In this document: positions 8,250-32,140 of the stretch, one piece after another
How the letters are laid out: each line of letters starts with the position of its first letter
Position numbering within the stretch: the first letter of the stretch is position 1
Source: an uncultured Acidimicrobiia bacterium
Lineage (GTDB): Bacteria; Actinomycetota; Acidimicrobiia; Spongiisociales; UBA5794
Assembly (NCBI GenBank): GCA_963792895.1
Contig: CAWBYA010000002.1
Coordinates: 2,583 to 66,582 of the forward strand
Reading direction: 5' to 3'
DNA: 64,000 nt
Made by a program: the position numbers and the translations under genes
Notes under the pieces: generated by a model
What the model saw: only the letters and a program-made list of their open reading frames with translations
Databases searched by the model: none
Told to the model about the DNA's origin: nothing

Positions 8250-10524
8250 TCAGCCTCGGCCGTATCGGACCAGCCGCTCTCGGGCAATGGGAAGGCGATC
8301 CACCGCGTGCTCGCCGGCCTCTCCGAGAGCGTCGGCGACGGCGTTGGCGATGGCAGCGCTGGCTCCGATGACGCCCGCTTCGCCGGCGCCCTTGGCCCCA
8401 ATGGGGTTGTGCTCCGTCGGCCCCGACTCGAAGATGACGGCGGATATCGGCGGCACGTCCCCGATGTTGGGAACGATGTATTGCATCAGCGTGGAGGCCT
8501 GCGGCTGACCCCACTCGTCGTACGGGAGAGCTTCGTGGAGCGCTGCCCCGACTCCCATCGCGGTCGCTCCGACCAGCTGCCCGACGACCGACTCCCGGTC
8601 AATCACATGCCCGCAGTCGTATCCCACCACCATCCGTTCCACCCGGACGTCGCCCGTGGTGTCATCGACGCGAACCATGGCGAGGTGCGCCCCGAACCCG
8701 TAGGTAGGGCGCGCCATGACGTGGCGGCCCAACACCCGAAGCGGGGCAAGGTCCTTCCAGGCGAGCTCGTCGTCTCCGGCGATGAATCCCTCTGCGGTGT
8801 GGGTGACATGCGCCGGAGTCGTCTCCAGCATCGTCGCCGCTCGGGCGGCGGCCTCCTGGACCAGGCGCGAGACGGCGTCCACGATCGCGTTCGACACGAA
8901 GACCGTCGTGCGGCTGGCGAAGGTCGCCCCGGCCACCGTCGTGGGCCCGGCTGTCGCCGCTGAGAACGTCGACGAGATCCGGCGGCACTCCCAGGGCTGC
9001 GGCGAGCACGCGGCGCGCCATCACGTCGAGGCCCTGACCGACATCGGTGGCGGAGGTCCCCAACAGGAAACGGCCTTCCGGTGTCAACTCCAGCTCGAGG
9101 GTCTCCTCTTCGCCGAGGCCGGAATGCGTGACGAAGACCCCCCAACCGAGCCCAACCCGTTCCCCTGCCGAGCGGCGTTGCTCTCGCTCCTGTGTCCAGT
9201 TGGCGTAGCCGAGTCTGCGGCAGAGGTCGTCGAGCATCATTGGGTAGTCGCCGCCGTCGAAGATCGGGTCGTGGTCGCCGCGTCCGAGGCGCTGCCGGTG
9301 CGGGATCTCGACGGGACGGACGAGGTTGCGGCGACGCAGTTCCAGCGGGTCCATCCCGAGCCTTGCGGCAGCCATGTCGATCATCCGCTCTCGCACGAAG
9401 GCGGTCTCGCCCGCCGCCGGGCCACGAACCGTGCCGACCGGCGTCCGCGTCGTGGCGACGCCGTGGCACCGTAGGTCGAGGCCCGCCCACCGGTACGGAC
9501 CGGGCAACGTCTCGACGATGATCTCCGCAACCCTGGCGCCGATGGGTCGCGGGATAGGCGCCGACGTCGTAGCGCACGTCATCGTGGAGGCTCGAGGAAG
9601 CGACCGCCACCGGAGACGACGATGCGGGCGCGATGATGTTGCTCGCCGGCGTGGTTGATGGCGACGAGGTGGTCGCGGCGCCGCTCGTTCCACCGGACAG
9701 GGCGTCCTGTGACCCTGGCAGCCCACGGAACGAGGAAGTCCTCCGGGTAGAGCTCGCCGCGCACACCGAACATCCCGCCGACATCCACTCGGTGGCAGAT
9801 CACCGACGAGGGTGGGATGCCGAAGAAGGCGGCCACGCTGGACCGGGTGAATTGGACGAACTTCGTCGGGCCCCACAGATCCAGTACGCCGTCACGCCAC
9901 TGTGGCGACGATGCCGCGCGGCTCGATCGGCAGCCCGGTGTGGCGCCCGGTGGTGAACGTCGCCTCGATGATCACACAGTCGCTTTCGGCGTCGACCTCG
10001 CCGAAGACGGCGGCGATCTCGGAGAGCACGTTGTTGCGTCCGTCGTCCCAGATCGGCGCAGGTTCGTCGGCGGTGACATCGGAGACTGCCGGCAGAGGAT
10101 CGATGTCGGCGAAGCACCAGGTTGGCGGCCTCCTCAGCGAGGGCAGGACTGTCGGCCACCACGACGGCAACCGGCTCCCCGACGTAGCGCACCTCGTCGG
10201 TCGCGATGACCGGTTGGAGCCTGCCCGCCATCTCGTCGGTCTGGAACTTGCGAATCGGGATGGTGGGCACGACATCGAGGTCGCTCGCCGTCAGCACGGC
10301 GTGGACGCCTGGCATCGAATGGGCTTCATCGGTGTCGATTGCCGTTCAGCGTGCCGTGGGCGAAGACACTGCGCACGACGCTCATCGCCAGCTCGCCCGG
10401 CCGGTCGCACGTCACCGACATAGCCGCCAAGGCCGCGAACGAACCGCTCCGGCGACGTCATCGTGGCTGCTTGGATCTCGCGGATCGATGACGGTGAAGG
10501 GCTTGGCGCCGGTCGCTCAGTCAT
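8250..10524 (-). CDS. Xanthine dehydrogenase/CoxL-family molybdopterin-binding large subunit, broken by several frameshifts
   Basis: Fragments: RFVRGLGGYVGDV, VRYVGEPVAVVVA, PIEPRG, VGGMFGVRG, ELRRRNL, DVGQG, YDCG, GAKGAGEAG and AIANAVADAL. Confidence 0.85.
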
Positions 10525-10833
10525 TGTAGGGACCACCCCGGCGACGGTCGTCGGGGGCGAGGAGCCAGGCAACCACTCCACATGTGGCCGCGTCCGTCGC
10601 CACCCGGTGGCGGCCACGCCAGACATCGTGACGAGGTCGGCGAGGACGGAGGTGCGTTCGGTTTCCCTTTGCTCGACACCGGCCGGCGGGCCCCTCTTGC
10701 CGGGCAGAACGGTGTGGGCGACTGCTTTGCTCGCCGTTCGCGCTCATCGGTTGCTGACACCTCCGTGCGGCGGTATACACTACACCAAGCGCCACGAGCC
10801 ACCGCTCGACCGACGACCGGGGAGGTCACCGCC

Positions 10834-11090
10834 TTGCACGTTGTGCGCTGGAAGACCGCTGAGCCCTATGTGCCGGCGGGGCACGAAGGAGTCGTCAACC
10901 GTCTCCTCGCGGGGAAGGCCGAGGGAGGAGTCGAAGCCGTCAGCATTTGGCACGGGACCCTGGAACCGGGTGGCTTCGCCGAGCCTCACGTCCACGAGCG
11001 CTCCATCCAAATCTACGTTGGGTTGTCCGGACGGATGGATGTAGAGACCCCTACAGGGGCAGTCAGCATCGACCGCGGCGACGCGGTCGG
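10834..11090 (+). pseudogene. Cupin domain protein, C-terminally truncated
   Basis: GGAGGT RBS; PGGFAEPHVHERSIQIYVGLSG cupin motif 1; motif 2 breaks off after GDAV. Confidence 0.6.
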
Positions 11091-11132
11091 GTCCGACGCC
11101 GGCACCGGACCTCGGCGTTCTGAGCGACTCGG

Positions 11133-11531
11133 ATGCGGGTGGTGCTCGATGCCAACGTGTTGATCTCTGCGGCGATCAGTGAAGGTCCGTCGCACCGGAT
11201 CGTGCAAGCTTGGCTGCAGAACCAGCGGTTCGAGTTGGTGATCTGCGATCGGCTGCTCGGGGAAGTGCGCAGCGCGTTGACCGAGCGGCGGCGTATTCGG
11301 AAGTGGAGCTCGGTTGACGCTGCCGACCTGTATGTGACGACCTTGGGACCCGATCCGGCGCCAGGTCCGGCGCTGACCAGGGACCCTGACGACGACTACG
11401 TGATCCGCCTGGCCCAGGCTCACGACGTCGACTACATCGTCAGCGGTGATGCCTACCTTCTCGGGTGGGACGAGCAGGATCCCCCGGTGATCCCACCGGC
11501 GGAGTTCGAGGCGAGACTGAGTCAATGCTGA
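11133..11531 (+). CDS. PIN-domain toxin (VapC-like)
   Basis: MRVVLDANVLISA, RDPDDDYV and IVSGD: conserved acidic PIN residues. Confidence 0.9.
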   Translation: MRVVLDANVLISAAISEGPSHRIVQAWLQNQRFELVICDRLLGEVRSALTERRRIRKWSSVDAADLYVTTLGPDPAPGPALTRDPDDDYVIRLAQAHDVDYIVSGDAYLLGWDEQDPPVIPPAEFEARLSQC

Positions 11532-11674
11532 GCGTCCACCGTCAGCGCTTGGGCCGCGGCTGGGCCGCGAGACGACGAAAACTGATGCAAGACGACTCGA
11601 ACCAACAAGAGGCAAAACACAAGGTCAACGCACGATTCCCATGCAAACCCCGAGGTCATCCAAACCGGTCCGCA

Positions 11675-11738
11675 CTGACTACGGATCAGAAGGATGGGGC
11701 CTGTCGCAAGCGACAGGGTCGAGTCCCTCCGGGCGCGC
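11675..11738 (+). repeat. tRNA-Arg(ACG) 3'-half-derived repeat with inserted hairpin, copy 1 (att-like)
   Basis: CTGA-CTACGGA-TCAGA anticodon arm, AGGAT variable loop, T-arm interrupted by CCTGTCGCAAGCGACAGG, then TCGAGTCCCTC-CGGGCGC; 57 bp identical to copy 2; no 5' half upstream. Confidence 0.85.
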
Positions 11739-11742
11739 TGCC

Positions 11743-11768
11743 GAAAACCGTTGCAGCGCAACGGTTTC
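11743..11768 (+). terminator. Hairpin following repeat copy 1
   Basis: AAACCGTTGC-AGC-GCAACGGTTT. Confidence 0.55.
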
Positions 11769-12013
11769 TGCATGATGGAGGTCTCTCGACCTTCTGACGT
11801 TTGGGAGCCAATCGCGCGCGTTTCAGAGCAGCTCGGTGAATCCCTCCACGGTGAGATCCGCCTGACGCAGAATCGAACGCAGCGTGCCTCGCGCCAACTC
11901 GCGATGCATTGGAACGATCACCGTCCGGTTGGCTTCGTTCCGTAGCTTCAGATGACTGCCGCGTCGACTCACCTCCAAGAATCCGATCTTGGCGAGGGCG
12001 CTAACCACCTAGC

Positions 12014-13087
12014 TGTACTCGGCCATCAGGTTGGTGACACTCGGCTGATGGGTGGTCGTCGTCCGAGTGAGCTGTGTTTGCGTTGATGGTTGTAGTTCTC
12101 GATCCATGATGGCAGGGTTTGGGCTCGTTCGTCGTTGCTGGTGAAGACCTGTTTGTAGGCCCATTCGGTTTGGAGAGTCCGGTTGAATCGTTCGACCTTG
12201 CCGTTTTGCCAGGGGCAGTGGGGGCGGATGGTGACGTGACGGACCCCCATAACGTTGAGGGTGTCGGTGAAGGCGATGCTTTTGGTATATGACCAGTGGT
12301 TGTCGGTCATCACCGCTTCGATCCTGCCGATGCCCTGAACAGCGAAGTATTCAGCGGCCCGCAGCAAGAACCCGGCCGCTGTGGCGCCCTGTTCATTGTT
12401 GTGGATCTCGGAGTAGGCGAGCCGGCTGTGGTCATCGACGGCTGAGTGGATGTAGTCGTAGCCGATACGGGCCTTCTTCTTTTCGGCGGTGACGATCTGT
12501 CGTCCCCATGCTTTCCAGCCGCCACCGTCAGGGATCCTGCCGATCTTCTTGACATCGATATGGATCAGCTCTCCTGGAGTGTCCCGTTCATAGCGGGTGG
12601 TCGTCTGTTTCGAGGCACGGATCACGGCTCCGGTCAACGGATCACACTCGAACAGATACGGCATCCGGTGGCGGCGCAGGATCCGACTGATCGTCCGCGC
12701 CGGCACACCGAGCTCGTCGGCGAGCCGATCCGGCCCCACCCGCAACCGACGCCGTGCAGCCACCACCTGCTCCTCAACCACAGCAGAGGTTCGGCTCGGA
12801 GACGTATACGGCCGCGATGACCGATCCACCAGCCCCACCTCGCCCTCAACGTCCCAACGGGCCACCCAACGATGTGCACACTGACGCGAAATCCCCATCG
12901 CTTTCGCCACATGAGCGATCGGCATCCCCTCCACACGGACCCGCTGCACCAGCAGACGACGCCCATAAACCGTGAGACGAGCATTACGGTGACCCATGAA
13001 GACCTCCAGTGGGTGTTGACGGCAATCACCACTCCACTCGGAGGTCTTCACCCAATCAAACTGTCACCAACGTCCTGACCGGATACA
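12014..13087 (-). mobile_element. Complete IS481-family insertion sequence
   Basis: TGT...ACA ends, imperfect 26-bp TIRs sharing GTTGGTGACA, 6-bp target duplication CCTAGC at 12008-12013 and 13088-13093. Confidence 0.93.
12026..12997 (-). CDS. IS481-family transposase
   Basis: HRNARLT, PGELIHIDVKK, AVDDHSRLAY, MTDN and NGKVERFNRTL (DDE). Confidence 0.95.
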   Translation of the reverse strand: MGHRNARLTVYGRRLLVQRVRVEGMPIAHVAKAMGISRQCAHRWVARWDVEGEVGLVDRSSRPYTSPSRTSAVVEEQVVAARRRLRVGPDRLADELGVPARTISRILRRHRMPYLFECDPLTGAVIRASKQTTTRYERDTPGELIHIDVKKIGRIPDGGGWKAWGRQIVTAEKKKARIGYDYIHSAVDDHSRLAYSEIHNNEQGATAAGFLLRAAEYFAVQGIGRIEAVMTDNHWSYTKSIAFTDTLNVMGVRHVTIRPHCPWQNGKVERFNRTLQTEWAYKQVFTSNDERAQTLPSWIENYNHQRKHSSLGRRPPISRVSPT

Positions 13088-13120
13088 CCTAGCGCCCAGA
13101 CAGGACGGGCAGGCTCGGGC

Positions 13121-13321
13121 TCACGCCGGGATGACAACCGGAGCGATGATGGGAGAATCGATGTGATCGGGGAGCGGCTGGTCCTCGTAGTAGAGCTCGA
13201 GGGCCTCGCGGAGGTTACTCAAGGCTCCCTCCACGCTCTCTCCCTGGCTGGTGACCTCTACTTCGAGGCAGCGGGCGACGTACCGGGGCGGCCCATGGGT
13301 GACGGCGGCGGTGAATCGCAT
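13121..13321 (-). CDS. hicB: HicB family antitoxin (short form)
   Basis: YVARCLEVEVTSQGESVEGALSNLREALELY; GTGA overlap with hicA start. Confidence 0.88.
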   Translation of the reverse strand: MRFTAAVTHGPPRYVARCLEVEVTSQGESVEGALSNLREALELYYEDQPLPDHIDSPIIAPVVIPA

Positions 13322-13493
13322 GGTCAGGAGTCTACGGCCACCAACCGTGTCCGTGGGTGCCCCGTGGTGCGGGTGCCAAGGGAACCATTCGCCGTTGATG
13401 GCTGTGGACGGCCACGGATGCCAGTGGAAGCAGAAGCCTTCCGATTCGGGCTGTGTGTCGGGCTGTGGATGTCCGTGGACGCTGCTTGGAGAT

Positions 13494-13555
13494 CTACGGA
13501 TCAGAAGGATGGGGCCTGTCGCAAGCGACAGGGTCGAGTCCCTCCGGGCGTGCCA
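13494..13555 (+). repeat. tRNA-Arg(ACG) 3'-half-derived repeat with inserted hairpin, copy 2
   Basis: Starts exactly at anticodon loop CTACGGA and ends CGGGCGT-G-CCA; followed by hairpin GAAACCCC...GGGGTTTC (13559-13588). Confidence 0.88.
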
Positions 13556-13803
13556 CCCGAAACCCCTGCGCAGGCGGGCGGGGGTTTCTGTCGCGCCGAG
13601 GGTGCGCCCACGCTCGGCGAACCGACCGTTGGGAGCCATTCTCTTTCTCCGGCGACGTTCGAGGAGCTCAAGGCCCTTCCGTGCAAGCGATATGTGCGGT
13701 TGCGTCATAACGCGATGACCGCTCGGGACTGCCGGATCGAGAGCGGTAGGAGGTGCGCGATATCGCTCTTGGCAGCTGGTGTTCTGGGTGGTTGCGGTGT
13801 CTC

Positions 13804-13817
13804 GATATCGCGATATC
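13804..13817. promoter_or_regulatory. Palindromic operator upstream of RHH antitoxin
   Basis: Perfect palindrome GATATCGCGATATC, 8 bp before the ATG. Confidence 0.6.
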
Positions 13818-13825
13818 ATGACCAT

Positions 13826-14044
13826 ATGGCGAAGGACATCAAACAAACCACCGTCCGGCTCCCCGAAGACCTCGCCGACGACGCCGAAACCGTCGCCCGC
13901 GTCAAGGGCACCAGCGTCAACGCCCTGATCATCGACGCCCTCAAGGCGGAGATCGAGCGGGTCCGCCAGGACGAGGACTTCACCAGCCGCGCCAAGCGGC
14001 TACTCGAACGCGACCGGGAACTGTTGGAACGCCTCGCCCGGTGA
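13826..14044 (+). CDS. Ribbon-helix-helix antitoxin
   Basis: 72 aa, QTTVRLPEDL..ARVKGTSVNALI; GTGA overlap with Doc toxin. Confidence 0.82.
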   Translation: MAKDIKQTTVRLPEDLADDAETVARVKGTSVNALIIDALKAEIERVRQDEDFTSRAKRLLERDRELLERLAR

Positions 14045-14463
14045 CCCGCTACGTCACGCTGGCCGAGTACTTCTGGCTGGCAGAACAAGTCACCGGCGTC
14101 GACGCCGACACCCTCGCCAAGGCAGCACGCTCCGACCTGGCCGACTCCGCCTTGCATGCGCCACAAGCCGGGTTCGGGGACACCGAGTTCTACCCGGACG
14201 TGTTCGACAAGGCCGCGGTGCTGGTGTGCCGGCTGGCGTGGAACCACCCGCTGCCCGATGGGAACAAGCGGGCCGCGTGGGCGGCGCTGGTGTTGTTCAT
14301 CGACTTGAACGACGGGGTCTGGGATCCCGACCCGCCCGACATCGACCAAGCCGAGGAAGCCATGCTGGCGATCGCCGCCGGCGACGTCGACGAGGCCTGG
14401 ACGGCGCAGTGGCTGCGCGAACCGAGTCCGCTTCGAAGGAGACGACTGAGATTGCCGATGTAG
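14041..14463 (+). CDS. doc: Fic/Doc (death-on-curing) family toxin
   Basis: SALHAPQAGFG..FYPDVFDKAAVL..NHPLPDGNKRAA. Confidence 0.9.
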   Translation: MTRYVTLAEYFWLAEQVTGVDADTLAKAARSDLADSALHAPQAGFGDTEFYPDVFDKAAVLVCRLAWNHPLPDGNKRAAWAALVLFIDLNDGVWDPDPPDIDQAEEAMLAIAAGDVDEAWTAQWLREPSPLRRRRLRLPM

Positions 14464-14715
14464 AAATCGCCACACGCCGCCACGGCGATGTGCGGTTCTG
14501 GAGGCAATGGTCACTCGCACCTGCAGCTTGCCAATCCGTGCGGCCACGACCGACTTGCTCTCGACGTACTGGTACGAGAGCATCCAGACAAGCCTCGAGG
14601 GCAAGCGGCGGTGTGCATCGGTTCATGCTGAGACGGACCTCGACGATGGCAAGACCAGATCGACCCGAGGAGGAGGGGACCAGCGTGAGGGGAGGCTGGC
14701 TGCATATCGGCGGAA

Positions 14716-15071
14716 TGAATCACCCCGGGTTTCGTAGAGGCTGGGTCTATTGGGTGACTGCCTCGGGGGTTGTGCTCGTTTGACGGTAGTAGGCGGTTTC
14801 GTGGGCGGCGGGGGTGGTGAACTGGCGGCGACCGGGGAGGATCTCTCCGTGACGGCGCCGGTGGTTGAACCAGTCGACGTACTCGAGGGTGGCGAACTCG
14901 ACCTCCTCGATGCCCTGCCAGAGCCCGTGGGGGTAGATGAGTTCCCACTTGTAGAGGCCGTTGAACGACTCGATCATCGCGTTGTCGTAGCTGTCTCCTT
15001 TGGATCCGACGGATGCGACCACGCCGTTGTCGGCGAGGCGCTGGGAGTACCGAACGGACAGGTATTGACCA
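14716..15071 (-). mobile_element. IS3-family remnant (right IR plus C-terminal integrase core)
   Basis: IR TGAATCACCCCGGGTTTCGTAGAGGC; QYLSVRY..SVGSKGDSYDNAMIESFNGLYKWELI..WFNHRRRH. Confidence 0.85.
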
Positions 15072-15074
15072 GGT

Positions 15075-16386
15075 TCAACCAGTCGTTGCAACACCAGCTT
15101 GTTGAACAGAGCGTAGGTGCTCATCGAAGGCTTCGGCTGGGGTCTTCCAGCCGAGGATCTTGCGGGGCCTGGTGTTCAGTGCGTGGGCGACAGCTTCGAT
15201 CTCGTCTGCGGACCATCTCGCTAGGTCGGTGCCTCTTGGGAAGTATTGGCGAAGCAGACCGTTGGTGTTCTCGTTCGTGCCGCGCTGCCAGGGCGACTGG
15301 GGATCAGCGAAGAACACTGGGATGTCGGTCTCGACGGTGAACTGGGCATGGGCGGAGAGTTCCTTGCCTCGATCCCACGTGAGCGACCGGCGCAGCTGTT
15401 GAGGCAACCTGCTCATCGATTTCGCGAGTGCGTTCTTCATCGTGATGGCGCCGTAGCCGGCGAGGGCGGGCCCGTTCTTGGGGGTCATCTTGTGTCGATA
15501 GCCGGGCTCTCGGGGCAGGTGGACCAGGATCGTGAACCTAGTGGTCCGCTCGACAATGGTGCCGATCGCTGAGCGCTCGAGGCCGATCACGAGATCGCCC
15601 TCCCAATGACCAGGGACAGCACGGTCCTCGGCTTCGGCGGGCCGCTCGCTGATGAGTGTCCCGGGCGTGACATGGGCCCACGTCTTGCGGCGCGAACGCT
15701 CCCTGGGCGCTCTCAACGCTCGGCCTGTGCGCAGACACCAGACGAGTTCCCGTTTCAGCGCGCCGCGCCCTTCGATGTAGAGCGACTGGTAGATGGCCTC
15801 GTGGCTGATCCGCATGGACTCATCATCGGGGAAGTCGAGCTTGATCCGGTTTGCGATCTGCTCGGGACTCCATCCGTGCACCCAAGCCCGGTCCTTGCGA
15901 TGCGGCTTGTTCATCCCCGTCCACCGGGGCGCAGGCGGGCCAGCGACCTCGGTGCCTTGTGGACCGCTGATCCGACCAGCGAGTCGGTTCTCGACGTACG
16001 CGTGCAGTCGCTTGTCCGCAACGAGTTTCGGGACCTTCGGTCGTCGTGCAGCCGTGTCCGCTTTCCATTGTGCTACCGACGCTCGATACTCGATCTTGCC
16101 GCTTCGGGTCGCAGCGTTGCGGCGTAGCTCGCGAGAGATCGTTCCGGGGTCACGACCGATTGCCCGGGCGATCTCACGCACTCCTTTGCCCTGCGCGCGC
16201 AGCAGCGCGATCTCCTCGCGTTCGGTGAAGCAGAGGTAGCGGCCTGAGGGCTGTTTGTTGATGTCGAACGGTGGCATGCCGCCAGCATGGCGGAACCAAC
16301 GGGCACCCACGGCCTGAGCCACACCGGCCACCGCCGAAGCCTCCTCGGGCAGCAGACCCTTGGCGATCTGGGCCCAAAACGCTGCC
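15075..16386 (-). mobile_element. IS30-family transposase, 5'-truncated
   Basis: TISRELRRN, WSPEQIA, SHEAIYQ, PGHWEGDL, TWDRGKE and WQRGTNENTNGLLRQYFP; reading frame is cut at 16387. Confidence 0.9.
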
Positions 16387-16411
16387 TGAACCTCCCCGGG
16401 TTCGGTGGAGG
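16387..16411. mobile_element. Isolated IS3-family terminal inverted repeat
   Basis: TGAACCTCCCCGGGTTCGGTGGAGG resembles the IR at 14716 and is in the same orientation. Confidence 0.6.
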
Positions 16412-16488
16412 AGATGGGAGGGCGGCTGTGGTCTCTCGATCCTGGGAGCCAAGCTGGGAGCCAGTCTCTGTGGCCGGGCCTTGTCCAT

Positions 16489-16546
16489 ATACCGATCAGA
16501 AGGATGGGGCATGTCTCAAGCGACAGGGTCGAGGCCCTCCGGGCGT
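16489..16546 (+). repeat. tRNA-Arg 3'-half-derived repeat, copy 3 (degenerate)
   Basis: 52/57 match to copies 1 and 2 by manual alignment; preceded by TGGGAGCCA x2 (16443, 16455); followed by hairpin 16553-16577. Confidence 0.82.
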
Positions 16547-16667
16547 ATTGGCGAATCCCTGCGTGAGCGGGGTTTCGACGCGCTGGGTTGCGGCGGCGAT
16601 CGGCTGAACTGAGGCTCGTGGGGCTGCGGTATCCCGTCTGACGTCCGCAGCTCCACTGTGCGGTGCT

Positions 16668-17435
16668 TCAGTGCAGCGCTCCTGCCCTGATCCGATCGGC
16701 GAGTTCGACGGACTCGTTTGTCGGAGTGGTCTGCAGTTCACTTGCGAGACGGCCGCGGAGGGCTGCGAAGTGGGAGAGGGCTGCGGCAGGCTCGCCGGCA
16801 TGCACGAGGAGGCGCATGAGGGCGCGGTGGCCACGTTCGTTCCAGGGGTCCAGCTCGACGAGTCGGTAAGCCAGTGCCAGGCCAGCCTCGACCTCCCCTA
16901 GTCGCTCGTACGCGGTGACGAGCCGGTCGACGAGGGCTACGGTCGAGCGGCGGTAGTGCTCTCGAGTATGCACCAGCCACTGGTCCCAGTCCGGACTGCG
17001 GCGCACGATGAGATCCTCGAGGAAGGGACCCCGGTAGAGCTCGAGCGCGGTCTCTAGTGTTTCCACGTGCGGTGTCTGGGACTTGGTCATCCGGGCGAGG
17101 CGGTTGAAAGCCTGGACATCCACGGTCACCTCCGGTGGGCCAGCAAGCGACAAGTGGCGCCGATCCGCCTTCACGATCGGTCGTTCGCCGTCAACGTCAC
17201 CGAGGGAACGGCGCAGCGTGCTCAGTGTGTGGCGGAGGTTCTTGCGGGCGGCACCAGGCGGCCGGTCCGGCCACAACAGCTCGGCGACGGCCTCTCGCGG
17301 GGTAAGGCGCGCCTGGTGGGCGGCGAGATAGGCGAGTAGCGCCCGGGCGGATTCCGATTCGAAGTGTGTCACCGGCCGCCACCCGGCGAGCACCTGAAGA
17401 GTGCCCAAGAGCCGCACCTCGAGCTTCGGGGACAT
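16668..17435 (-). CDS. AfsR/SARP-family regulator (wHTH + BTAD only)
   Basis: EVRLLG, RALLAYLA, ELLWPD, VDVQAF, ALELYRGPFL and DPWNERGHRALM. Confidence 0.88.
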   Translation of the reverse strand: MSPKLEVRLLGTLQVLAGWRPVTHFESESARALLAYLAAHQARLTPREAVAELLWPDRPPGAARKNLRHTLSTLRRSLGDVDGERPIVKADRRHLSLAGPPEVTVDVQAFNRLARMTKSQTPHVETLETALELYRGPFLEDLIVRRSPDWDQWLVHTREHYRRSTVALVDRLVTAYERLGEVEAGLALAYRLVELDPWNERGHRALMRLLVHAGEPAAALSHFAALRGRLASELQTTPTNESVELADRIRAGALH

Positions 17436-17572
17436 AGCGCTCCCAGCGGACCGGTCTTCGCATCGTATGCCGCCTCGCATCCGGGATAACGGAGCTATTG
17501 GTCCCTTCCACGCCCTTTCCACGCCTTCGGACCGTATGATCGAGAGGGATGGTGGGAGAGAGGAGGTATGCG

Positions 17573-18076
17573 GTGAAGCGCATATTCTGTGTGATGGTGT
17601 CGGCGCTGCTCCTCGTCGGCGTTGCGGCGAGTCCGGTTGCGGCGGGCCGAGACAATTGTGTCTCTTTCGAAGGGCGCGAGTACTTCGACGACGTGGTCGA
17701 TCCCGGCGTTGTGCGGGTCCGTGACTCTTCGCTTGCGATTCGGGGTGCGAGCTACAGCTCAACGGTGACTGGCCACCGCTACTTCGAGGGCGCAAGTGAC
17801 ATCGTCTTCAATCTCAACCTCGACCTGGAAACTCTCTCCGGCATCGGTTGGGGCTCGAACCACGTGACTTCGGCTCATTTCGAAGACTCAGGGTTCCAGG
17901 GTGTGTACCGGGTGATCATGTCTGACTTCGATCTCGACACCGGGGCCGGCACGTACGTCGGCCACTCGATCGGCTGGGGCTATGGCGACTTCGACGGGAT
18001 GACGATCACCTCTCATGGTTCGCACACGATCGGCGACGAGTACCAGACCTCGACAGTGACCCTCTGCAGCGGCTGA
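17573..18076 (+). CDS. Secreted hypothetical protein (beta-rich)
   Basis: AGGAGG RBS; signal peptide KRIFCVMVSALLLVGVAASPVAA; divergent from the SARP gene. Confidence 0.7.
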   Translation: MKRIFCVMVSALLLVGVAASPVAAGRDNCVSFEGREYFDDVVDPGVVRVRDSSLAIRGASYSSTVTGHRYFEGASDIVFNLNLDLETLSGIGWGSNHVTSAHFEDSGFQGVYRVIMSDFDLDTGAGTYVGHSIGWGYGDFDGMTITSHGSHTIGDEYQTSTVTLCSG

Positions 18077-18133
18077 GTCCGATCTTTCCTCTGCGCGAAG
18101 CAAGATCTTATCGGCCGATGCCGACCGACATCC

Positions 18134-18580
18134 TCACCTAGCTCCCACGCCGAGCAACCATTGGGGCGCACGAAAGCGCATTCCGACGGGTGCGCCAGAG
18201 CGACAGTTCCAGGATCCGTCCAGAGGAACGTCTCGCAGCCGGGTGGGGTGCGCGACTCCATGCCGGGCGCCGCCCAGCGGTGCCGGTTCAGGACCGTTCG
18301 GGCCGACGACACGCACCGGTGCGAAACGCGGCCAACCAATCGCCCTCCCTCGAATGCATGTCGATTTCGGAGAAGACCCTCTCGACATGCCGGCGGCGAT
18401 CTCCTCCTCCGACGAGACGTAGTGGTAGATCGTCTTGGGCCTGGCGCCCAACGCGGTCGCGAGCTTCGGATCGTGAATGCTTCGATGCCGATCTCGTCGG
18501 CACGAGTAGCCGCCTCTTCCGGCACCTGGTTCCGGTTGAGCGATGGTCGTGCGATCTCTCTCACCCCGACCTTCTCCAAA
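18134..18580 (-). pseudogene. Degraded TetR/TetR_C family regulator
   Basis: LNRNQV..ADEIGIEAFTIR, then after a frame change KTIYHYVSSEEEI..SARTVLNRHRWA. Confidence 0.6.
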
Positions 18581-18619
18581 GGAACGGCTTGACGAGTCGT
18601 ACTAAGTACAAGTACCTTT

Positions 18620-18652
18620 TCGAACAGATCGTACTAAGTACGATCTGTTCGA
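18620..18652. promoter_or_regulatory. Perfect 16-1-16 inverted repeat, probable TetR operator
   Basis: TCGAACAGATCGTACT-A-AGTACGATCTGTTCGA; core CGTACTAAGTAC repeated at 18598-18609. Confidence 0.7.
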
Positions 18653-18666
18653 TGAAGGGAACATCC

Positions 18667-19023
18667 ATGTCGACCTCCAACCACACCCGTCCCCCAGCAG
18701 CAGCCGGGACTCCGGAAGGCCAACGCAGGGAAGAGGCCAGGCAGTACGTGCAGCAGCTTCGTGTCTTCTACGTCCACGCAAGCGTGTTCGCCGCAGGCAT
18801 GGGCATCATCTTCCTTGTGAATCTGGCCACCAACGCAGCGGCCGGCATCACCGGCGAATGGTGGGCATGGTGGTCGGTCTGGGCCCTGCTCGGCTGGGGC
18901 CTCGGCGTGGCGATCCACGGGCTCGTCGTACGCATGTCACGACCCCACAGCTCGAGCCCAACGTGGGAGCAACAGAAGGTAAACGAGATCCTGTCGTCAG
19001 AGGAGGCCGGACCGCCCCGATGA
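18667..19023 (+). CDS. 2TM domain-containing membrane protein
   Basis: ARQYVQQLRVFYVHA..INL..WWSVWALLGWGLGVAIHG..WEQQKV pattern. Confidence 0.8.
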   Translation: MSTSNHTRPPAAAGTPEGQRREEARQYVQQLRVFYVHASVFAAGMGIIFLVNLATNAAAGITGEWWAWWSVWALLGWGLGVAIHGLVVRMSRPHSSSPTWEQQKVNEILSSEEAGPPR

Positions 19024-31309: not shown

Positions 31310-32140
31310 TCACGACGCTTCGGCGCCGGTGATCTCCACCACACGCTGCGGGAACGGGATCTCGACGGAGGCCGCCGCAAGAGCTTCGTGGACTGCGCGC
31401 GTCACGGCGTCGCGCACCATCCATTGATCCGCGATGGAGGAGCCGTGCCAGAAGCGCAGGGAGAAGTTGATGCTCGAGTCGGCGAACTCGTAGGCATATG
31501 CCTGCGGCGCCGGGTCACCCTTCACGCCCTCGACAGCCTCGAGGGTCTCGACGAGCAGCCGGCCAACGTCGCCGAGAGAGCTGCCGTACGCAACGCCGAC
31601 GGACAGCGTCGTGCGCCGGATCGGCTCGGCCGTATGGTTCACGATCGGGTTCCGCCACACGGCCGAGTTGGGAATGAAGACCCGCTCGCCGTCGTACGTT
31701 CGCATCGTCAGCTCGCGCAGGCTGATGTCCTCGACGACTCCCTCGTGATCGGCGGTCGTGATCTCGTCACCCTGGCTGAACGGTCGCCGCGCCGACAAGA
31801 AGACCCCGGCGATGAAGTTCTCGAGCACCTCCTGGAAAGCGAACGCCAACGCAAGCCCGAGCAACCCGATGACGCCGAGGAACGGTGCGAGTGACACACC
31901 GACTTGCTCGGTCGCATAGAAGAACCCGAAGATGAATACGACAATCGCCGTCACCCGCCCGATCAATCGGGCAACGAACGGCGCGATCTGGGGGGTGGAC
32001 AGGCGGACGATCACACGGAACGTGATCAGTGCCGCGATCGCTGCACCGAGGGTGAGCCCGCCTGCCCACAGCCAGTCGGACAGCGTCAGAGCGCCGAGCT
32101 GCTCGAGCGTTTCCGCTGCGTCTGTGTCGGTCGCGGCCAT
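31310..32140 (-). CDS. Small-conductance mechanosensitive channel (MscS family)
   Basis: GLALAFAFQEVLENFIAG, RPFSQGD, IPNS, VGVAYG and IPFPQR. Confidence 0.92.
   Translation of the reverse strand: MAATDTDAAETLEQLGALTLSDWLWAGGLTLGAAIAALITFRVIVRLSTPQIAPFVARLIGRVTAIVVFIFGFFYATEQVGVSLAPFLGVIGLLGLALAFAFQEVLENFIAGVFLSARRPFSQGDEITTADHEGVVEDISLRELTMRTYDGERVFIPNSAVWRNPIVNHTAEPIRRTTLSVGVAYGSSLGDVGRLLVETLEAVEGVKGDPAPQAYAYEFADSSINFSLRFWHGSSIADQWMVRDAVTRAVHEALAAASVEIPFPQRVVEITGAEAS

Follow-up and report, generated by a model that had tools for sequence, protein, structure and literature searches.

How do toxin-antitoxin genes come to stand in a row, separated from one another by pieces of a transfer RNA (tRNA) gene, on a contig that carries neither an intact tRNA nor an integrase? 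This question is raised by a 64,000-nt stretch of DNA from an uncultured Acidimicrobiia bacterium (hereafter the window, to which all coordinates refer unless a contig or locus is named), which lies on contig C2 (76.7 kb) of an assembly of nine contigs that is 93.6% complete. The window holds three copies of a 57-nt repeat, in a segment flanked by genes for a cupin and a BTAD regulator, and the DNA ahead of them carries a PIN gene, a hicBA pair and an RHH-Doc pair. A sequence-only reading had interpreted these as minimal non-autonomous cassettes accumulated in tandem at sites derived from tRNA-Arg(ACG), i.e., an integron-like array on a tRNA scaffold, and had suggested looking for further copies in this and related genomes, for the same cassettes in a different order and for a linked tyrosine recombinase. 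Here, we compare the locus with a second array in the same genome and with loci in relatives (relative genomes are numbered G, stretches fetched from them are numbered L, and C2 and C9 denote contigs of the window's own genome). We conclude that the window probably contains a detached, decaying array of units resembling cis-mobilisable elements (CIMEs), formed by tandem accretion and derived from a family whose tyrosine integrase targets tRNA-Arg(ACG).

Identity of the repeats and the array at tRNA-Arg(ACG)

The three window copies (a, b and c in Table 1) lie in the same orientation, with a and b identical and c matching at 52/57 positions, and a search for their 52-nt core at three mismatches or fewer gives three hits in the window compared with 0 in 100 shuffles. 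The genome has a single tRNA-Arg(ACG) gene, on contig C9 (c[31422-31496]), which measures 40 nt from the anticodon loop to the 3' end; the window 57-mer consists of these 40 nt with two substitutions and a 17-nt insertion. Identity to the tRNA runs from CTACGGA, the 7-nt anticodon loop, through GGGCG(TGC), and the insertion is a hairpin (CCTGTCGC-AA-GCGACAGG) at the 5' side of the T loop. Copy b ends in GTGCCA, and folding places a stem-loop of its own on the 3' side of every window copy. A simple terminator scan rejects all of these stem-loops because their T runs are too short, and they are therefore named stem-loops here and not terminators. The number, positions, orientation and similarity of the copies, the G-CCA end of the second and the different hairpin behind each had all been described from sequence alone and were confirmed; the identification of the repeat as the 3' half of tRNA-Arg(ACG) is upheld as to the start of identity at the anticodon loop, and has to be amended by the T-loop hairpin and the two substitutions.

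No tRNA was called by ARAGORN in the window or on the whole of contig C2, a search of positions 9000-19000 against Rfam (E ≤ 1) gave zero matches, and none of the 12 matches to the integrase domain PF00589 in the genome is located on C2 or within 25 kb of the tRNA-Arg on C9. The earlier statement that integrase and intact tRNA are both lacking is correct for the window contig, but an intact tRNA-Arg(ACG) with an array of its own is present on C9, where the gene is followed by four copies on the same strand at intervals of 3569, 425, 5589 and 1671 nt. The genome has a normal array at the tRNA, on C9, plus a second array on the tRNA-less contig C2.

Cores occur in three forms, namely the hairpin type of the window (L1), a plain form (S) and a form with another hairpin at the same position (L2). 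The four C9 copies are, in order, S, L1, a diverged L1 and S; plain copies are found in relatives as well. Four genomes (G000, G011, G015 and G003) have L1 copies, 10 in all, and the L2 form has four occurrences in three genomes (G041, two near-identical contigs of G031, and G005; sites L052:1893, L053:15676, L055:3239 and L061:8126), with a hairpin, e.g., CGAACTC-GGA-GAGTTCG, that is unrelated to that of L1. Among the tRNA-Arg genes called by ARAGORN in the own genome and the examined relatives, none has a long-form core. Whether a core is long or plain is independent of the cargo, hicBA and RHH-Doc units elsewhere carrying S cores.

Two further features of the C9 array were noted. A 779-aa AEP-TOTE primase and helicase gene (C9 28350-30686, L067:13350-15686; PF22548 at E=1e-76, ResIII and DEAD) forms, with hicB, a 3.6-kb unit directly behind the tRNA, and a truncated homologue occupies the same position in G022. 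Past the last copy, at C9 19500-19970, there are two TGGTCCGC repeats, a mark of the integrase-type downstream arm described below; tblastn found no integrase remnant in this interval, and a deletion seems to have removed the integrase gene here right to its end.

Junctions, units and integrases in related genomes

Sixty relatives of the same genus, family and order were searched for the second window junction (window:13470-13560), which was matched in 35 of them (a tally that includes the unpublished G039), and 19 of the 60 have at least two matches within 10 kb on one contig by hand count. In G001 and G002, which belong to the same genus, this query had no match, a result of little weight given assemblies in 340 and 160 contigs that are 83% and 92% complete. 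Twenty stretches from 16 relatives, selected for several matches, were fetched; with C2 and C9 included, the set contains 71 copy sites, of which 61 were found by a fuzzy pattern and 10, being partial, were taken from the BLAST table. The intervals between copies (n=49) have a median of 1758 nt and range from 425 to 10,967 nt, with 17 of the 49 at 1.13 kb or below. An intact tRNA-Arg is present in 13 of the fetched loci of relatives; in G011 it is followed by at least nine copies across 27 kb, the last three being of the L1 type.

The G011 array (L047:2512 to L048:9586, contig 2) is the longest seen. Its host tRNA has a compensated T-stem variant, GGGGA/TCCTC, which recurs in some of the copies, and the copy at L047:8392 is of the common GGGGG/CCCTC type, as if it came from another host. 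Two of the hairpin-type copies enclose a peroxidase gene whose sequence is KatG-like.

Conservation extends well beyond the core on both sides. The junctions have about 130 nt of conserved sequence upstream, including a double TGGGAGCCA box and seven GTGGAC repeats, and about 80 nt downstream. Read towards the core, the class A upstream arm, whose consensus comes from an alignment of 27 junctions, has TGGGAGCCAAGTTGGGAGCCATTC followed by four GTGGAC repeats spaced 11-12 nt apart; next come a short palindrome (GGAAtcGAAAGCC..CGTTCC), a further three GTGGAC repeats and finally GGCTTGGAGAT, after which the core begins. A different upstream arm, class B (GAGGCAAAAC...AGGTCA...CGCACTGA), stands ahead of window copy a and of copies in G031 and G059. 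On the downstream side, the stem-loop is followed in most small units by (GACCTTCTGACGTT)TGGGAGCCATTC, which lies 64-87 nt past the core. Exact TGGGAGCCA boxes occur 76 times in 457 kb, and 66 of these are near a copy on the same strand (16 at most 90 nt after it and 50 at most 140 nt before it). The class A profile finds five matches in the own genome, each beside a copy, three on C9 (125, 104 and 42 bits) and two in the window (70 and 24 bits), while most junctions in relatives score 95-131 bits. Taken as a whole, each junction would resemble a complex attP of about 260 nt, made up of an upstream arm, a tRNA-derived core and a downstream arm. In phage and plasmid collections neither arm was found, and the junction query matched over its 40-nt tRNA part only.

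The double box alone, a 24-mer, was sought with at most two mismatches in 400 other genomes of the class (including the unpublished G291) and was found in 40, of which 38 belong to the window's order; it is often letter-perfect and is exact across several families of the order, compared with one hit for the reversed control. Outside the order, two genomes of one genus in family f18 have a double box with the same two mismatches (G148:C4:106690 and G361:C4:241199), which may reflect transfer beyond the order. We also considered the TGGGAGCCA box (reverse ATGGCTCCCA) as the conserved start of a reverse-strand open reading frame (ORF) running into the copy, such ORFs ending in ...GGTRPCRLRQAPSF, and rejected this as a probable by-product of high G+C and of the stop in the anticodon stem.

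The integrase missing from the window contig is present in relatives. In G031 the tRNA-Arg is directly followed by a 379-aa tyrosine integrase gene on the opposite strand (PF00589 together with PF14659, an N-terminal SAM-like domain), within a 4.7-kb unit that has an antitoxin-PIN pair and then a class B arm at its other end. Of the 60 relatives, 10 possess orthologues at 65% identity or more. Their placement was established in nine of the ten, G024 being left out: no more than about 40-120 nt separate the gene from the tRNA or from a copy in eight (G031, G059, G009, G041, G015, G034, G023 and G052), and in G004 a full integrase gene is 4 kb from the tRNA, beside which there is a remnant. The G059 element is complete on one contig, with tRNA, integrase, class B arm and copy within 5.8 kb, and a similar element in G015 measures 7.2 kb. 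On contig 22 of G031 (L053:4669-15676) an 11-kb element whose integrase is interrupted by a single TGA has a class A arm and an L2 copy at its end, and class A arms are therefore tied to integrase-bearing members too. In G023 a 4.4-kb integrase-less class A unit stands between the tRNA and an integrase-bearing unit. The downstream arm of the integrase units overlaps the 3' end of the integrase gene and has three TGGTCCGC repeats, i.e., the GTGGAC-type motif inverted; inverted arm motifs would be the arrangement expected of arm-type sites by analogy with lambda-type integrases. The best tblastn matches in the own genome are integrases of 36-51% identity located beside other tRNAs.

The small units recur in different company. 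A hicBA unit flanked by a box-type arm and, at its other end, a class A arm is found in the window, in two versions on C9, and in four relatives (G022, G031, G016 and G004). In the relatives it measures 634-803 nt where it stands alone; in the window, the 1758-nt interval from copy a to copy b comes to 674 nt once the 1084-nt insertion sequence (IS) is subtracted. Of the two C9 versions, the one by the tRNA has the added AEP-TOTE gene and the other is internally deleted, to 425 nt. The upstream neighbour of hicBA is a PIN element (window and G031), the tRNA (C9 and G022), a HigBA unit (G004) or another unit, and its downstream neighbour is RHH-Doc (window, G016 and G004), an integrase element (G031) or other cargo. 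The RHH-Doc unit is found in G016, G004, G009 and G041 at 865-1000 nt. Nucleotide identity between the window and these other genera is 90% for the PIN unit of G031, 90% for hicB of G022, and 84% and 81% for RHH-Doc of G016 and G041, respectively, compared with gyrB identities of 77-78% for G031, G022 and G016 and 71% for G041. That the units are more similar than gyrB, the one gene compared, points to horizontal spread. The hicBA and RHH-Doc units are best read as minimal units with a toxin-antitoxin pair only, which would travel as CIME-like passengers.

Several expectations of the sequence-only reading can be judged from these loci. Copies do occur elsewhere in the genome and in relatives, and a tyrosine recombinase abuts some of them. 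The three modules it named have the corresponding domain matches, and its size of about 0.68 kb for hicBA agrees with our interval. Its minimal non-autonomous cassettes are borne out for hicBA and RHH-Doc, which recur without integrase at 0.63-1.0 kb, but not for the PIN block, which comes from a larger element (see below). The expected change of cassette order is seen in the varying neighbours of hicBA, whereas the succession of hicBA and RHH-Doc is constant in the window, G016 and G004.

Cargo was surveyed using 96 heuristically called ORFs of at least 60 aa from the relatives' intervals and Pfam. The commonest families are components of toxin-antitoxin systems, with Fic/Doc (4), DUF7387, which is HicB-like (4), HicA (3), PIN (3) and RHH (3), followed by PemK, HTH_3, PF05534 HicB and integrase with two each; single matches include peroxidase, sulfate permease, VIT1, luciferase-like and nitronate monooxygenases, an ABC transporter, a class I tRNA synthetase and others. 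Short intervals hold mostly toxin-antitoxin pairs, and longer ones hold ordinary accessory genes. A 715-aa ORF that is the sole cargo of a 2.9-kb unit in G036 (L056:1311-3455) looks like a class I aminoacyl-tRNA synthetase from its sequence, and the PF00133 match of the tally probably belongs to it.

Layout and history of the window array

The features of the window array are collected in Table 1. The assignment of the fragment at 14747-15124 to the IS3 family is a reading of its sequence and is accordingly given as putative. Pieces of the IS30 part are found at >99% identity in contigs of several sediment metagenome runs.

Table 1 Position and nature of the features in and beside the window array
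Feature	Position	Strand	Basis
Cupin gene without its last ~31 codons; left boundary of the array	10582..11085	+	Weak Cupin_2 match; G022 homologue runs 31 residues past ...RGDAV
Remnant (last bases) of antitoxin gene of class B integrase-bearing element	11086..11132	+	G031 (L054) homology begins exactly at 11086, within the 105-aa gene upstream of PIN
PIN_3 toxin gene, partner gene gone	11133..11531	+	PF13470 E=4.5e-17; homologous to right-end PIN gene of G031 elements
Class B upstream arm (GAGGCAAAAC...AGGTCA...CGCACTGA)	11532..11678	+	Same flank in G031 (L053:3826; L054:10938, 16099) and G059 (L070:16646)
Copy a, hairpin-type (L1) tRNA-Arg(ACG) 3' part	11679..11735	+	
Downstream arm of copy a: stem-loop, then GACCTTCTGACGTT-TGGGAGCCA box (11802-11810)	11736..11815	+	Box 67 nt past the copy, like other junctions
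hicA toxin gene, 3' part	11823..12008	-	PF07927 E=1.8e-16
IS481-family element splitting hicA	12009..13092	-	1084 nt; 31-nt inverted repeats; transposase with LZ_Tnp_IS481 and rve
hicA 5' part, first 11 codons	13093..13124	-	Matches the VSPSLP... HicA start of relatives
hicB-like antitoxin gene	13121..13321	-	Weak DUF7387 match; 90% nt identity to G022 and contig C9
Decayed class A upstream arm, with the double box degenerate and part of the GTGGAC repeats gone	13370..13493	+	nhmmer 70 bits
Copy b, L1 type, identical to copy a	13494..13550	+	
Downstream arm of copy b: stem-loop, then TGGGAGCCATTC box (13630-13638)	13551..13645	+	
RHH antitoxin gene	13826..14044	+	Weak Arc and PSK_trans_fac matches; 77-84% nt identity to the cassette of G016, G004, G009 and G041
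Doc (Fic/DOC) toxin gene, last codons altered	14041..14463	+	PF02661 E=4.9e-10
Putative IS3-family transposase fragment (14747-15124) cut by IS30-family element (transposase 15075-16331)	14747..16331	-	HTH_38 and rve for the IS30 transposase
Class A arm stump: double box 16443-16466; GTGGAC repeats and GGAGAT absent	16439..16488	+	nhmmer 24 bits, profile positions 10-46 (window 16439-16475); 24-mer with two mismatches
Copy c, L1 type, 52/57, two mismatches in the hairpin stem	16489..16545	+	
Stem-loop after copy c, no TGGGAGCCA box beyond	16546..16580	+	End of array placed here since the box is lacking

At the left boundary one end of the array has been lost to a rearrangement. Homology between the PIN unit and the G031 element starts at exactly 11086 and continues at 90% over 632 nt, through the PIN gene and the class B arm into copy a, and the cupin homologue of G022 is intact while the window cupin loses its last 31 codons to element DNA from 11086-11088. 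Contigs from public runs (X2, X3 and X7) match the window only from 11086 rightwards and have 133-221 other letters leftward. A homology that begins inside an antitoxin gene, next to a broken cupin gene, means that the PIN block is a stump and not a minimal cassette; it is what is left, at the right end, of an integrase-bearing element of 4.7-5.8 kb, and an illegitimate event has joined it to the cupin gene. An attempt to reconstruct the empty site failed, G022 having the left flank with an intact cupin and no right flank, and G001 the right flank only.

The cargo of the RHH-Doc unit (13731-14434) is inverted relative to its arms compared with 4/4 relatives, all of which align on the reverse strand, and homology stops at about 14434, short of the end of the window Doc ORF (14463). 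The right breakpoint adjoins IS debris, and an IS-mediated inversion is possible.

In the explanation that we favour, i.e., a detached array of CIME-like units built by tandem accretion, an incoming circle would recombine through the CTACGGA anticodon loop with the tRNA gene or an earlier copy, supplying its own tRNA 3' part, which would restore the gene, along with its stem-loop and arm sequences. Serial insertion of this kind would lead to a row in which every junction resembles an attP. Units without an integrase could persist by keeping both arms, and the integrase of a larger family member could excise and re-insert them in trans; any two junctions could recombine to free the unit or units between them, and a circle could insert either at the tRNA or into one of the junctions. 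Insertion of an L-type circle into the real tRNA gene would disrupt the T loop of that gene, which would limit L-type cores to secondary junctions, and this fits the positions of L-type copies in G011 and C9. The window array itself has lost its integrase-proximal end in the rearrangement at the cupin gene, and has undergone two IS hits, the inversion of the Doc cargo and decay of the arms; the order of these events is inferred. It is most likely immobile now.

A number of observations weigh against this explanation. The window's own arms are decayed, as their profile scores show, and contigs of public runs yield no usable excision joint, with the best run containing 24% of the sampled words of 11000-17000; the Logan contigs of X1, X2, X3 and X7 are short related pieces, a joint from 11810 to 13476 seen on a single one of them has a side of 23 nt and is below trust, and the runs thus speak neither for excision nor against it. 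The own assembly has no cognate integrase, an absence that is unproven at its level of completeness. The small units are without GGAC-type repeats downstream, where the integrase-bearing elements have them, and a shared integrase is therefore only a candidate for both unit types. The order of hicBA and RHH-Doc is the same in three genera (window, G016 and G004), which block inheritance or transfer fits as well as independent insertion, and the identity comparison uses a single housekeeping gene. Furthermore, the fetched loci were chosen for multiple copies, so that the interval statistics describe arrays and not how frequent arrays are, and the cargo ORFs were called by a simple GC3 rule and include some spurious ones.

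Some of these points would suit a history of pure decay, in which only full-size integrase elements were ever inserted and the small units are deletion remnants kept by the loss resistance of toxin-antitoxin genes, their recurrence being due to descent or block transfer. The PIN unit is exactly such a stump, C9 has both the internally deleted 425-nt hicBA unit and a hicBA unit that retains the AEP-TOTE primase-helicase, and behind some copies there are pieces of an integrase gene (L054:11110-11541 and L060:18105-18317, with remnants also in L073); the hicBA and RHH-Doc succession shared by three genera is also as it would predict. We nevertheless regard pure decay as unlikely, given that the same small units, of 0.63-0.9 kb, with differing neighbours have complete, highly conserved arms on both sides, and that their box-type downstream arm is a distinct conserved sequence at a fixed distance from the copy, not a leftover of an integrase gene end. 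The excess of unit identity over gyrB identity and the exact 24-mer in several families of the order speak against it as well. A possibility in the opposite direction, which we hold only tentatively and consider rather doubtful, is that the order has a true gene-capture platform at tRNA-Arg(ACG), where mini-cassettes with a dedicated ~260-bp module (two plus one TGGGAGCCA boxes and seven GTGGAC repeats) are self-standing satellites and not debris, moved singly by a helper integrase, and where hairpin cores evolved so that cassettes join existing junctions only and arrays can grow or relocate while the single essential tRNA is spared.

Recombination could also have been homologous, with tRNA-derived repeats duplicating and shuffling blocks in the absence of any site-specific process. 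Copies a and b agree at all 57 positions between differing flanks, which suggests conversion between neighbours, and all window copies are of the hairpin type where the same cargo elsewhere has plain copies. Such recombination is, however, a very improbable explanation for the array, for it leaves unexplained the ~210 nt of conserved arms with ordered repeats around each core, the integrase abutting the site in eight relatives and the sharp start of tRNA identity at the anticodon loop. The stem-loop after every copy, and a hairpin at the same place in two unrelated versions, L1 and L2, might instead bring to mind genes for a small tRNA-like RNA (a half-tRNA with an extra hairpin and its own terminator) acting with the toxin-antitoxin modules. 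This we find scarcely credible: there is no Rfam match and no promoter-like site ahead of any copy, fold z-scores are only -1.1 to -1.8, and hairpin changes in copy c, L048:9512 and L062:9782 break pairs without compensation (no formal count), giving no support for a selected RNA structure. Plain copies share the same layout, and a tRNA 3' end and terminator carried in the attP already explain it.

Relation to known elements and significance

Integrons consist of small exchangeable units rich in toxin-antitoxin genes, with junctions that are sites for one tyrosine recombinase, and the window array is like them in behaviour only, as a row of small toxin-antitoxin-rich units. The integron-like label of the sequence-only reading has to be given up. 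There is no IntI with attI and a promoter, as the contig lacks PF00589 matches and the integrase of relatives is of phage type and located in mobile units, not on a fixed platform. Nor are there attC-type imperfect palindromes or promoterless cassettes in a single orientation: the sites are tRNA-derived cores with asymmetric arms, the cargo has its own promoters and lies on either strand, and RHH-Doc is found in both orientations.

The array comes closer to tRNA islands, in which the repeat is the 3' part of the tRNA from the anticodon loop onwards, as it is here apart from the extra T-loop hairpin. An intact target tRNA at one end is lacking in the window and present in the C9 array and the 13 loci of relatives, and a tyrosine integrase beside attL is lacking both in the window and at the C9 tRNA-Arg and present in eight relatives. 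Corynephages integrate at tRNA-Arg, and in phage records annotated with this tRNA the 40-nt tRNA part of our junction is 95% identical at the record ends, which amounts to 18% of the query.

CIMEs are described as elements that have lost integrase and transfer genes, have kept attL and attR, and occur in tandem with integrase-bearing relatives at a tRNA 3' end (PMC5704250), and mobilisation by the integrase of a neighbour or an incoming element has been proposed for them (PMC5704250, summarising Pavlovic 2004 and Bellanger 2011). The units of the window family share both the layout and the proposed mobilisation route. No integrase or transfer genes lie inside the hicBA and RHH-Doc units, which contain toxin-antitoxin genes and later IS, and attachment sites are retained as class A or B upstream arms and box-type downstream arms, those of the window being weak. 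The differences are that our units go down to 0.63 kb, possibly a toxin-antitoxin pair alone, with mobility that is inferred; that the box-type arm is without counterpart in integrase-bearing members; and that no conjugation genes were seen in the family members examined here.

Other tandem islands at structured-RNA genes have been reported. The ssrA islands of Dehalococcoides stand in tandem behind a structured-RNA gene that is present once in the genome; direct repeats of the 3' end of this gene, flanked by additional conserved bases, part one island from the next, and 15 of them without an integration module were proposed to be CIMEs (PMC3146451). In that account they use a serine recombinase, a 20-bp repeat and crossover in the T loop of the tmRNA (PMC3146451), in contrast to the tyrosine integrase, the repeat of 40-57 nt and the identity from the tRNA-Arg anticodon loop found here. 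The tycheposons of Prochlorococcus are tyrosine-recombinase elements at tRNA genes, with insertions separated only by partial tRNA copies, and their islands contain degenerate elements, stray partial tRNAs and adaptive or defensive cargo (10.1101/2020.12.28.424599). The likeness is one of layout, in a different phylum, and that account describes tycheposons by their integrase and replication modules and not by long shared arms on integrase-less mini-units (10.1101/2020.12.28.424599). A literature search, supplements excluded, returned no description of this tRNA-Arg element family in Acidimicrobiia. The concept itself, CIMEs and tandem accretion, is already known, and the units belong to a known kind of element and do not embody a new integron-like principle.

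What the analysis adds is an order-wide family of integrative units, defined by an unusually conserved attachment module, in mostly uncultured bacteria of sediment and water. With it, tRNA halves that stand without tRNA or integrase become a readable history. The 24-nt double box and the arm profile are markers for a flexible gene pool that includes toxin-antitoxin pairs, a TOTE-type primase-helicase, peroxidase and transporters, and for a clade without genetic tools the integrase, used with the arms mapped here, might serve in site-specific integration. Units with only toxin-antitoxin genes offer a clean case in which to ask whether such genes persist as selfish passengers of attachment sites. 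The interest of the family therefore lies in its conserved order-wide module, its minimal toxin-antitoxin units and its hairpin cores.

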